Under the pieces are notes generated by a model. The model saw only the letters and a program-made list of their open reading frames with translations, searched no databases and was not told the origin of the DNA. From a virus, in the UHGV virus genome UHGV-0186015: 28,702 nt of DNA; one strand, 5' to 3'. Every line of letters begins with the position of its first letter. The first letter of the stretch is position 1. The position numbers and the translations under genes are program-made. Positions 10,522 through 25,368 of this stretch are shown here, piece by piece.

Positions 10522-11274
10522 ATGAACCTTGAAGCCTTACCAAAATATTACTCCCCAAAATCTCCCAAATTGAGCGATGAGGCACCGGCGACAGGCTCGG
10601 GTGGTTTAACGATTACGGATGTGATGGCTGCGCAGGGGATGGTGCAGTCGAAAGCACCGCTTGGGTTTGCCTTATTCCTGGCAAAAGTTGGTGTTCAGGA
10701 TCCTCAGTTTGCGATTGAAGGTCTGCTCAATTACGCGATGGCACTGGATAACCCGACATTGAACAAATTGAGTGAAGAAACCCGGTTACAGATCATCCCT
10801 TACCTTGTGAATTTTGCCTTTGCTGATTATTCCAGGTCTGCGGCAAGTAAGGCTCGCTGTGAGCATTGTGCTGGTACTGGATTTCATAATGTATTGCGCG
10901 AAGTGGTGAAACACTCCAGAAGCGGGGAGTCTGTTATCAAGGAAGAGTGGGTGAAGGAATTATGTCAGCATTGCCATGGTAAGGGAGAAGTCAGCACGGC
11001 TTGCAGAGGGTGTAAGGGTAAAGGCATTGTCCTGGATGAAAAAAGAACCCGGCTTCATGGCGCGCCTGTTTATAAGATTTGTGGGCGTTGCAATGGAAAT
11101 CGGTTTAGTCGTTTACCGACCACACTGGCACGACGTCATGTCCAGAAGCTGTTACCAGACCTGACTGATTATCAGTGGTACAAAGGATATGCAGACGTCA
11201 TTGATAAACTGGTAACAAAGTGCTGGCAGGAAGAAGCATTCGCAGAGTTACAGTTGCAAAAAGTGACACGATAG
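10522..11274 (+). CDS. Q: Late-gene antiterminator Q (zinc-finger Q family)
   Basis: 250 aa with CxxC ... CxxC ... CxxC zinc-ribbon motifs; sits immediately upstream of the late promoter/terminator and lysis cassette. Confidence 0.8.
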   Translation: MNLEALPKYYSPKSPKLSDEAPATGSGGLTITDVMAAQGMVQSKAPLGFALFLAKVGVQDPQFAIEGLLNYAMALDNPTLNKLSEETRLQIIPYLVNFAFADYSRSAASKARCEHCAGTGFHNVLREVVKHSRSGESVIKEEWVKELCQHCHGKGEVSTACRGCKGKGIVLDEKRTRLHGAPVYKICGRCNGNRFSRLPTTLARRHVQKLLPDLTDYQWYKGYADVIDKLVTKCWQEEAFAELQLQKVTR

Positions 11275-11371
11275 CTACATTTTTAATGATTTTCTCCGCA
11301 CAATGCTTGCAATTTTCAAAAAATATGGTTAGCCTTAACATAAAGATGGGCATTGAATGTCTAACTTTTAT
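11275..11371 (+). promoter_or_regulatory. Probable late promoter pR' / qut region (assigned by position)
   Basis: Intergenic between Q and the first downstream terminator; candidate TTGCAA (11306-11311) with a weak -10 (TAGCCT) 17 nt downstream. Exact elements not resolved. Confidence 0.3.
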
Positions 11372-11396
11372 AAACCCGCTCAGGCGGGTTTTATGT
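11372..11396 (+). terminator. Rho-independent terminator (tR'-like)
   Basis: AAACCCGC-TCAG-GCGGGTTT stem followed by a T-rich tract. Confidence 0.6.
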
Positions 11397-11421
11397 TGCA
11401 TGTTTTTTGAACAGCTGATAT

Positions 11422-11437
11422 TGTGATCTTCATCACA
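11422..11437. promoter_or_regulatory. Perfect CRP-consensus palindrome TGTGA-N6-TCACA upstream of the cargo ORF
   Basis: TGTGA (11422-11426), 6-nt spacer, TCACA (11433-11437); candidate extended -10 TGtGATACT at 11440-11448 just downstream. Confidence 0.5.
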
Positions 11438-11466
11438 TTTGTGATACTGGTTGAAAGGAGATCACC

Positions 11467-11670
11467 ATGCAAAATAGTAAACACACGACCAAGAAGGTCG
11501 TGGCAATTGCAAATAATATTGAGATTGGCTCAGTATTAGTGTCTGCTACTCAGAAAAGTATTCTGCTGAATACTGGTTGGGAATTACCAATTAGAGAAGT
11601 AGACAAGCTGTCTCATTCCTATGAGGTTTACATTAAACCTCGTCATAAAACCCTCCATCCTTCGCGATGA
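11467..11670 (+). CDS. Small cargo (moron) protein of unknown function, 67 aa
   Basis: AAAGGAG 6 nt before the ATG; insulated by intrinsic terminators on both sides; at the Q-holin junction, the slot that holds stx in Stx phages. No family recognised. Confidence 0.6.
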   Translation: MQNSKHTTKKVVAIANNIEIGSVLVSATQKSILLNTGWELPIREVDKLSHSYEVYIKPRHKTLHPSR

Positions 11671-11687
11671 TGAAAATAAGATTTTTG

Positions 11688-11713
11688 AGGCCGCCTACGG
11701 GCGGCCTTTTTTA
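11688..11713 (+). terminator. Strong Rho-independent terminator
   Basis: AGGCCGCC-TACG-GGCGGCCT stem followed by TTTTTT. Confidence 0.7.
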
Positions 11714-11799
11714 TGCGCACTTCTGCAAATCAGCGTTATAACCAGCTTCTTTCCCTTTTACTTGTGGCACTTCCGGTAATCGGAGGTGGGAATTATGAA

Positions 11800-12135
11800 A
11801 TGCACAACGATCCTCATTCCTGGCCTGATTTACTTGAACTGTTACAGAGCTGGTGGCGTGGAGACACACCGCTGGGCGCAGTGATTATGTCGATCGTTAT
11901 GGCTGGCTTGCGCATTGCCTATTTTGGCGGTGGTGGTGGCTGGAAGCGAAAAACGCTCGAGATTTTGCTCTGTGGTGCTCTGACGCTGACTTTTGCATCC
12001 GCTCTTGAGTATGTCGGATGGCCCAAATCGCTTTCTGTTGCCATTGGTGGCGGCGTTGGGCTGATCGGTGTCGATGCTATTCGTGGGGCTGCAATGCGAG
12101 TAATCGGTAACAAATTTGGTAGCTCGAAGGAGTAA
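11800..12135 (+). CDS. S: Class I holin (lambda S-like)
   Basis: 111 aa from the ATG at 11800 (GGAGG upstream); three predicted TM segments and a charged C-terminus alignable to lambda S. The upstream in-frame ATG at 11713 has no SD and sits in the terminator T-run. Confidence 0.75.
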   Translation: MHNDPHSWPDLLELLQSWWRGDTPLGAVIMSIVMAGLRIAYFGGGGGWKRKTLEILLCGALTLTFASALEYVGWPKSLSVAIGGGVGLIGVDAIRGAAMRVIGNKFGSSKE

Positions 12136-12138
12136 TTT

Positions 12139-12615
12139 ATGCAGGTACTAAATCCCCAGCGTAAAGCTTTCCTTGATATGGTGGCCTGGTCAGAAGGAAC
12201 GGATAACGGGCGACAACCGACACGTAACCACGGTTATGACGTTATTGTCGGTGGCGAACTCTTCACTGATTACTCCGATCACCCTCGAAAACTTGTCACG
12301 CTAAACCCGAAACTCAAATCAACAGCCGCAGGCCGTTATCAACTTCTTTCACGCTGGTGGGATGCTTACCGCAAGCAGTTAGGGCTGACAGACTTCTCTC
12401 CTAAAAGCCAGGATGCTGTTGCATTGCAGCAGATTAAGGAGCGTGGCGCTTTACTAATGATTGATCGCGGTGACATCCGTCAGGCAATCGACCGTTGCAG
12501 CAATATCTGGGCCTCATTGCCTGGCGCTGGTTATGGTCAGTTCGAGCATAAGGTTGACAGCCTGATTGCAAAATTCAAAGAAGCGGGCGGAACGGTCAGA
12601 GAGAGTGAGGTATGA
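12139..12615 (+). CDS. R: Endolysin, lambda R-type lytic transglycosylase
   Basis: 158 aa; QRKAFLDMVAWSEGTDNGRQPTRNHGYDVIVGGELFTDYSDHPRK ... corresponds closely to lambda gpR at the same length. Confidence 0.95.
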   Translation: MQVLNPQRKAFLDMVAWSEGTDNGRQPTRNHGYDVIVGGELFTDYSDHPRKLVTLNPKLKSTAAGRYQLLSRWWDAYRKQLGLTDFSPKSQDAVALQQIKERGALLMIDRGDIRQAIDRCSNIWASLPGAGYGQFEHKVDSLIAKFKEAGGTVRESEV

Positions 12616-13050
12616 GCAGAATAACCGCGATTATCTCCGCTCTGGTTATCTGCATCATCGTCTGCCTGTCATGGGCTGTTTAATCATTACCGTGATAACG
12701 CCATCGCCTACAAAGACCAGCGCGATAAAGCCACATCCATCATCGCTGATATGCAGAAGCGTCAACGTGATGTAGCAGAACTCGATGCCAGATATACAAA
12801 GGAGCTTGCTGATGCTAACGCGACTATCAAAAGTCTCCGTGCTGATGTTTCTGCTGGGCGTAAGCGCCTGCAAGTCGCCGCCACCTGTGCAAAGTCAACG
12901 ACCGGAGCCAGCGGCATGGGCGATGGAGAAAGCCCAAGACTTACAGCAGATGCTGAACTCAATTATTACCGTCTCCGAAGTGGAATCGACAAGATAACCG
13001 CGCAGGTTAACTACCTGCAGGAGTACATCAGGACGCAATGCCTGAAATAA
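12612..13050 (+). pseudogene. Rz: Rz i-spanin interrupted by a +1 frameshift
   Basis: Frame from ATG 12612 encodes [23 protein letters not shown] then TAA at 12681-12683; the remainder ([15 protein letters not shown] ... YIRTQCLK) continues in the +1 frame to 13050. The shift lies in the T-run GTTTAA. Confidence 0.7.
12812..12997 (+). CDS. Rz1: Rz1 o-spanin lipoprotein, embedded in the +1 frame of Rz
   Basis: AAAGGAG 7 nt before the ATG at 12812; signal peptide with lipobox-like VSAC, Pro-rich mature region, 61 aa. Confidence 0.7.
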
Positions 13051-13081
13051 TTTTTTTGCAAATCACAAAGTCAATTTAATG

Positions 13082-13106
13082 AGCCTCGCGATGCGGGGCT
13101 TTTTTA
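13082..13106 (+). terminator. Rho-independent terminator after the lysis cassette
   Basis: AGCCTCGC-GAT-GCGGGGCT stem (one G-U pair) followed by TTTTTT. Confidence 0.6.
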
Positions 13107-13252
13107 TGTCCGCATTAAACGCGCTTCACACGCGCGACTTATGAACACAGAACCTTTCAGGATGACCCTTGAGGATGCCGGTTTGGTGATCGGTGCCTTT
13201 CTGTGGGCCGGAATCCTGTGTGACAAGGTTCATCACTAAAAGGTGAACACTG

Positions 13253-13795
13253 ATGAATTATCCAACTATCGTTAACGGCATCGATTTCCGAGATCTGATT
13301 TTTGTGGCAAACAACGATCCGGTTACAGATTCTTTTATGGTGGCAAAAGCATTTGGAAAGCTGCCGAAGAACGTAGTTCGTGACATTGAACGAACCATAG
13401 AAGCTTGCCCTCCTGAGTTTGATACAAAGCTCAACTTTGAGCTTTGCTATAAAAACAATGAGTTACAGAATGGTAAACCGCAAAAATTCTACCGTCTCCG
13501 CAAGGATGGGTTGATGCTTTTGGTTATGTCCTACACCAAAAAAGAAGCAATGCGTATCAAAATTGCTTACATCAACGCATTCAACTGGATGTACGCCATG
13601 CTTCAGGTTGGTCATCGTCAATTTGAAGAAGAGCGAAACGCCGTAATGCTGGAGTACATGAAAGAAAAGGATGTCGCCAGCATGTCTGGCCGTCTGCTCA
13701 ATCGCTGGGGAAAAATTAAGAAGCCTCAGCTAATGGCGAGAATTGAACGCCTTGAACAGCACGGGCAAACCGTAATCCCCGGACTCACTAATTAA
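13253..13795 (+). CDS. Rha-family phage regulatory protein
   Basis: 180 aa; N-terminal FVANNDPVTDSFMVAKAFGKLPKNVVRDIERTIE matches the Rha N-terminal domain. Confidence 0.7.
   Translation: MNYPTIVNGIDFRDLIFVANNDPVTDSFMVAKAFGKLPKNVVRDIERTIEACPPEFDTKLNFELCYKNNELQNGKPQKFYRLRKDGLMLLVMSYTKKEAMRIKIAYINAFNWMYAMLQVGHRQFEEERNAVMLEYMKEKDVASMSGRLLNRWGKIKKPQLMARIERLEQHGQTVIPGLTN

Positions 13796-15945: not shown

Positions 15946-15971
<26 letters not shown>
15426..15971 (+). CDS. nu1: Terminase small subunit Nu1
   Basis: 181 aa, MEVNKKQLADIFGASIRTIQNWQEQGMPVLRGGGKG..., recognisably lambda gpNu1 at the same length. Confidence 0.97.
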
Positions 15972-19652
<3,681 letters not shown>

Positions 19653-24945: not shown

Positions 24946-25368
24946 ATGTTCCTGAAAACCGAATCATTTGAACATAACGGTGTGACCGTCACGCTTTCTG
25001 AACTGTCAGCCCTGCAGCGTATTGAGCATCTCGCTCTGATGAAACGGCAGGCAGAACAGGCGGAGTCAGACAGCAACCGGAAGTTTACTGTGGAAGACGC
25101 CATCAGAACCGGCGCGTTTCTGGTGGCGATGTCCCTGTGGCATAACCATCCGCAGAAGACGCAGATGCCGTCCATGAATGAAGCCGTTAAACAGATTGAG
25201 CAGGAAGTGCTTACCACCTGGCCCACAGAGGCAATTTCTCATGCTGAAAACGTGGTGTACCGGCTGTCCGGTATGTATGAGTTTGTTGTGAATAATGCCC
25301 CTGAACAGACAGAGGACGCCGGGCCTGCAGAGCCTGTTTCTGCGGGAAAGTGTTCGACGGTGAGCTGA
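24946..25368 (+). CDS. G: Tail assembly chaperone G
   Basis: 140 aa, lambda gpG-like. Confidence 0.95.
   Translation: MFLKTESFEHNGVTVTLSELSALQRIEHLALMKRQAEQAESDSNRKFTVEDAIRTGAFLVAMSLWHNHPQKTQMPSMNEAVKQIEQEVLTTWPTEAISHAENVVYRLSGMYEFVVNNAPEQTEDAGPAEPVSAGKCSTVS
25344..25350 (+). other. Slippery heptamer G GGA AAG for the -1 programmed frameshift producing gpGT
   Basis: GGGAAAG read directly in the G frame, 18 nt before the G stop; the T frame is -1 relative to G. Confidence 0.8.

Follow-up and report, generated by a model that had tools for sequence, protein, structure and literature searches.

A one-base insertion splits the Rz gene of a lambda-like prophage that also carries a stop codon in its large terminase gene and an intact nested Rz1 gene

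The window, by which we mean the whole 28,702-nucleotide stretch of DNA analyzed here (UHGV virus genome UHGV-0186015), is a lambdoid prophage with a CPS-53/yfd-like early region, a Q-type antiterminator gene (10522-11274), a lysis cassette and lambda-like late genes (Nu1/A/W/B/C/D/E...H/M). No tRNA genes were found in the window. The order of the cassette is antiterminator, terminator, holin, endolysin and Rz/Rz1, which places the spanin genes at its end. The features of the cassette are as follows, all on the plus strand.

11687..11717, plus strand: GC-rich hairpin (11687-11708) with a T-run, a terminator-like site upstream of the lysis genes
11800..12135, plus strand: holin of the lambda family, class I (111 aa, one in-frame start; Pfam Phage_holin_3_1, E=5e-28)
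12139..12615, plus strand: endolysin, a lambda R-type transglycosylase (158 aa, intact)
12612..12683, plus strand: 5' fragment of the Rz i-spanin gene, 23 codons for the N-terminal membrane anchor and a premature TAA
12679..12681, plus strand: TTT run that holds the inserted T (TT in relatives; the gap against the closest prophage falls at 12679)
12682..13050, plus strand: 3' part of Rz, the periplasmic coiled-coil domain, 122 codons, now in the +1 frame
12799..12804, plus strand: Shine-Dalgarno sequence AAGGAG of Rz1, 7 nt before the Rz1 ATG and identical in HK75
12812..12997, plus strand: Rz1 o-spanin lipoprotein precursor (61 aa, intact), inside the 3' part of Rz
13081..13107, plus strand: intrinsic terminator-like hairpin with a T-run, downstream of the lysis cassette

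Both ends of the cassette have counterparts in phage HK75. The terminator-like site upstream of the holin gene resembles the lambda tR' late terminator by position, and a Tr' is annotated at the matching position of HK75; a terminator is likewise annotated in HK75 at the place equivalent to the downstream hairpin. In the closest complete E. coli prophage (NZ_OZ547461, called L121 here), the counterpart of the endolysin is a GH24 protein with 95% identity along its whole length, and tblastn revealed no stops in the endolysin of the window. Between the antiterminator gene and the upstream hairpin lies a 67-aa ORF (11467-11670), which has no Pfam match; the annotation of E. coli FDAARGOS_497 lists it as a hypothetical protein. 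Further downstream, between the lysis cassette and Nu1/cos, a Rha-family regulatory protein of 180 aa with a C-terminal ORF11CD3 domain is encoded at 13253-13795. The corresponding region of lambda is the site of bor and other accessory (moron) genes.

The start of the holin gene (11795-11802) reads ATGAAATG in the window and ATGAAAATG in L121, the latter being the Met-Lys-Met dual start of lambda S. The ATG at 11800 is in frame; an ATG at 11795 is out of frame, yet it is better spaced to the GGAGG at 11782-11786. Since the upstream ATG is out of frame, this is a holin allele without an antiholin start. We considered it as a third lesion private to this prophage and rejected this, as at least 33 complete E. 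coli genomes have exactly the same sequence. In E. coli FDAARGOS_497, the gene with this allele carries the annotation of a 111-aa holin; no isolated phage of the collection has it.

Read directly, positions 12672-12690 of the window are TGGGCTGTTTAATCATTAC. A sequence-only reading of this DNA had claimed that the Rz frame ends at a TAA just behind the transmembrane segment and that the rest of the gene continues in the +1 frame. Both statements are exact: frame 0 from the Rz ATG at 12612 gives 23 residues and then the TAA at 12681-12683, so that Rz is cut down to its membrane anchor, and the +1 frame is open from 12682 to a C-terminus of ...YIRTQCLK and a TAA at 13048-13050. As encoded, there is no single polypeptide with both the transmembrane segment and the periplasmic coiled-coil of an i-spanin. 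The anchor (12612-12680) and the periplasmic part (12682-13047) lie in different frames with the TAA between them and are joined only once one T is deleted. The first ATG in the +1 frame of the 3' part is at 12751, and no start there gives an exported product; the 99-aa ORF that begins at this ATG (12751-13050) matches Pfam Phage_lysis (E=2e-34) and is without a membrane anchor or signal.

Alignment to relatives supports the single-T insertion proposed from the sequence alone. The window has GCTGTTTAAT where L121 has GCTGTTAAT, and this is the lone gap in Rz between the two. All 80 of the listed phage and E. coli matches that span the insertion site are one base shorter than the query, most of the listed matches being 500 nt long against a query of 501 nt. 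Deletion of one T from 12679-12681 yields a 145-aa Rz ORF (Pfam Phage_lysis, E=1e-35), which can be aligned over its entire length with the Rz proteins of HK75, lambda and three E. coli prophages; its identity to Rz of HK75, a viable phage, is about 97%. The comparison with lambda Rz that the earlier reading had called for agrees with this: 22 of the 23 residues of the anchor fragment are those of the N-terminus of lambda and HK75 Rz, and the one-T-deleted protein aligns over its full length. The repaired protein and the 99-aa ORF both score far above the gathering score of the i-spanin family PF03245 (Phage_lysis). Judged by sequence, the identity of Rz is settled by near-identical characterised homologues.

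The nested Rz1 gene had been described as intact with its ribosome-binding site and lipobox, and we found it so. It is contained entirely in 12682-13050, shifted one frame ahead of the Rz 3' part, and has its own ribosome-binding site, as expected for an embedded o-spanin. Its product matches Pfam Rz1 (E=2e-20) and is identical to annotated HK75 Rz1 at 60 of 61 residues. The lipobox VSAC at residues 17-20, with the cysteine at position 20, fits the consensus [LVI][ASTVI][GAS]C (PMC6139136). The exact Rz1 protein is present on 524 contigs in the public collection and is common in intact cassettes.

The GTTTAA allele was also found in four public assemblies (ERZ19636494, SRR7658642, ERZ27289130 and ERZ28618764). 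These sister contigs were recovered by exact-protein look-up with the 99-aa 3' ORF, endolysin, portal and terminase fragments. They are 99.6-100% identical to the window with zero gaps, and all of them carry TGGGCTGTTTAATCATTACCG. Seven SNPs separate the window from all four sister assemblies, and since the four differ from it at the same SNPs, the window represents a fifth independent source. The five sources do not differ by a single SNP in the lysis cassette; all seven are in the terminase gene, at 16533-16581, 17342 and 17433. Five of the seven are clustered within 49 bases (16533-16581), a pattern suggestive of recombination with another lambdoid prophage over a small patch.

The terminase gene carries a second lesion and is given here in the same form as the features above.

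15946..17871, plus strand: large terminase subunit (gpA homologue) with an in-frame TGA at 16846-16848 (W301*)

The codon at 16846-16848 is TGG in relatives and TGA in the window, where the next base is A, and the stop falls between the GpA_ATPase and GpA_nuclease domains (Pfam). A frameshift in the terminase gene was considered and rejected; the disruption is an in-frame nonsense codon. The same TGA is present in L129, L144, L145 and L146, and every sister contig spanning the site has it. When the proteins of the intact relative L121 were run against the window by tblastn, about 35 gave matches, and only Rz (split between two frames) and the large terminase (one stop) were disrupted. The roughly 33 remaining genes in this comparison are intact, with identities of 93-100% to functional relatives. 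No contig with only one of the two lesions was found, and all contigs spanning both sites carry both.

In the sister contig L138, the region immediately left of window position 1 (11047-12746) encodes an AraC-family regulator and an NAD-binding protein. A set of 5,426 complete E. coli genomes contains neither gene, and their only relative among species representatives, at 61%, is from Herbaspirillum. No integrase was seen at the window's left end in L138. In three related lambda-like prophages (L127, 13708-20641; L131, 13708-15870; L133, 5781-13122), the genes D (decoration) and E (major capsid) are separated by an element, which carries integrase, AlpA, D5-type primase and SSB genes and may be a satellite or P4-like. 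In L133 this element is preceded by a 91-aa capsid-E fragment, suggesting insertion into the capsid gene itself.

These findings are very probably explained by a lambda-like prophage in early mutational decay, in which Rz was inactivated by a spontaneous change of TT to TTT and which is inherited vertically with its host lineage. The Rz frameshift is an ordinary pseudogenising insertion: a simple one-base change that is absent from HK75, lambda and all listed E. coli prophage matches, accompanied by a further inactivating lesion in an essential gene (terminase W301*), with both lesions present throughout the lineage formed by the window and four independent assemblies. Given the terminase stop in the same prophage, the Rz lesion is one of two decay lesions and not a special state of the lysis system. 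Incomplete prophages preferentially lose lysis and terminase genes (PMC7744054), and the two lesions fit this published pattern, in which genes of lytic functions are lost first.

The topology of Rz is type II (N-in, C-out), and its periplasmic domain binds Rz1 (PMC5295617); defects in either spanin subunit are reported to lead to fragile spherical cells (PMC5295617, PMC6139136). In the window, translation from the Rz start at 12612 ends at UAA after 23 codons and produces the membrane anchor alone. The periplasmic coiled-coil, which needs both an inner-membrane tether and binding to Rz1, would not be made in an exportable form, and Rz1 would still be translated from its own ribosome-binding site without a partner. 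We infer that no functional i-spanin is made, and the published Rz topology predicts a lysis defect, in line with the impaired outer-membrane disruption that the sequence-only reading had predicted. On induction, the holin and endolysin should still kill the cell and degrade its wall; the outer-membrane fusion step would then fail, leaving spherical unlysed cells where divalent cations stabilise the outer membrane. We also infer a lack of packaging, which should fail because the terminase is truncated too.

Lambda late transcripts are Q-antiterminated, so any polarity of the premature stop on Rz1 and downstream genes is predicted to be small. The host cell should still die on induction, and neither lesion is therefore obviously adaptive for the host; both look like neutral decay. 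Since the cassette is without SNPs in five sources, the open 3' frame of Rz and the intact Rz1 reflect recency and are not evidence of selection. Together, the intactness of the other compared genes and the invariance of the cassette indicate either that the decay is very recent or that the element is under some selection. Both lesions might also leak slightly: A is the base after the terminase UGA, and shaken cultures poor in cations do not need spanins.

One alternative, which we consider improbable, is that this is an attenuated yet viable phage, which tolerates the loss of Rz and reads through its terminase stop by means of tRNA-Trp. UGA followed by A is a leaky context, and read-through by tRNA-Trp would restore the wild-type residue. 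However, UGA read-through reaches a few percent at most. The stop lies in an inter-domain segment, and the good state of the remaining compared genes would also suit a functional phage, as would the occurrence of the element in five samples or more; the five occurrences are equally well accounted for by vertical transmission in a bacterial lineage. The need for spanins was long overlooked, since shaken laboratory cultures lyse without them (PMC6139136), while Berry et al. 2012, in the form in which PMC5295617 cites that work, report that a defect in either spanin blocks lysis. In addition, the Rz allele was found in no isolated phage of a 50,697-record collection. If this were nevertheless a viable phage, a lineage with reduced burst and delayed release would persist in gut communities, with the outer membrane rupturing without spanins under shear or at low cation concentrations.

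Another possibility is a domesticated remnant, in which the 23-aa membrane peptide, the orphan Rz1 or both are retained for the benefit of the host. We regard this as highly unlikely. Rz1 is intact with good translation signals, and the Rac prophage of E. coli K-12 likewise has an intact rzoR beside a dead rzpR. However, the inserted T is 130 nt upstream of Rz1 and therefore could not have damaged it, the invariance of the cassette makes its intactness uninformative on selection, and the same Rz1 protein is common where the cassette is whole. We know of no function for Rz1 without Rz. Leaky or tolerated lesions on the one hand, or an orphan Rz1 or 23-aa anchor peptide retained by the host on the other, are a quite improbable account of the locus, and nothing positive supports either an attenuated phage or a retained function.

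Full-length Rz might also be produced in a regulated manner by programmed +1 frameshifting of the prfB type, with GUU slipping over the U of UAA. Formally, a +1 shift at a stop codon corresponds to the arrangement in prfB (CUU UGA C); a GGG precedes the GUU by 2 nt, and the downstream Rz frame is fully open. The signals of prfB itself, namely a slippery P-site, a weak stop and a Shine-Dalgarno-like stimulator, are not found at this site (GGG-CU-GUU-UAA-U), which has only the GGG upstream. Re-pairing from GUU to UUU creates a mismatch at the first position of the codon, no termination context in E. coli is stronger than UAA-U, there is no stimulator of the AGGGGG type, and the upstream TGGGCT consists of conserved Trp-Ala codons found in every Rz. 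To look for the frameshift allele elsewhere, we used a degenerate 24-nt pattern, with the same pattern minus one T as a control. The frameshift pattern had no matches in genome_contigs (185,579 species-representative genomes), viral_contigs (IMG/VR) or metagenome_contigs, showing an allele private to one lineage, while the in-frame control pattern matched at least 120 loci in viral_contigs (IMG/VR), most of them with Rz ORFs of 142-155 aa. Near full-length copies number about 1,700 in E. coli records. With no shifted match against at least 120 in-frame ones, the site is not conserved among homologues and a conserved recoding site is rejected; programmed recoding is scarcely credible here. A genuine programmed frameshift signal is present elsewhere in the window, in contrast to the Rz site: the -1 slippery heptamer GGGAAAG of gpG/gpT is intact at the G/T overlap (25344-25350). 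Transcriptional slippage was rejected as well, the T3 run being far too short.

A sequencing or assembly error, with TT in the true DNA and an intact Rz, is extremely unlikely: a one-base length change in a short homopolymer is the commonest type of sequencing error, but the same TTT is present in four contigs independently assembled from different samples, their contig names point to different assemblers (k119 and k141 MEGAHIT-style, scaffolds, Logan), and the shared SNPs show that the sister contigs are not the same data as the window. The same three-T run in five sources and several assemblers is thus not a sequencing error. A run of three bases is not error-prone in short-read chemistry.

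Early decay of a vertically inherited prophage, as preferred above, has practical consequences for annotation. The annotation should label Rz a frameshifted pseudogene and include Rz1, and the prophage should be scored as defective despite its near-complete look; prophage-completeness tools would probably score it as intact. The prophage offers a clean case of how prophage decay begins: a lysis gene and the terminase gene each carry a point lesion, and the rest is untouched. The Rz lesion itself opens no new biological question.

Among known systems, the locus corresponds to the embedded lambda-type spanin pair Rz/Rz1 of the HK75/HK97 subtype. It occupies the same place, after holin and endolysin, and shares with this subtype the anchor, the repaired Rz and an Rz1 that is embedded in the +1 frame and has a lipobox, at the levels of identity given above. 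It differs in that the i-spanin of the window is split by a one-base insertion after codon 23, leaving no complete i-spanin. From prfB (RF2), which it resembles in that full-length Rz would need a +1 shift at an in-frame stop, the Rz site differs by its lack of conservation, its unfavourable GUU P-site, its strong UAA-U stop and the missing proper Shine-Dalgarno-like stimulator.

The closest known analogue is Rac of E. coli K-12 MG1655, a defective lambdoid prophage in which rzpR is annotated as a pseudogene while the rzoR nested in it is still an intact CDS of 61 codons. In Rac, the 5' end of Rz is deleted and the prophage is heavily degraded, whereas in the window one base is inserted and nearly everything else is intact; Rz1 of Rac is of the lambda type and that of the window of the HK75 type. 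A further parallel is provided by the amber and frameshift null alleles of lambda Rz made in the laboratory, in which Rz ends early and Rz1 stays in place. The Mg2+-stabilised spherical cells produced by such nulls (PMC5295617) would be the phenotype expected for the prophage in the window. Those alleles were engineered or selected, whereas the allele described here is natural and fixed in a prophage lineage seen in metagenomes.
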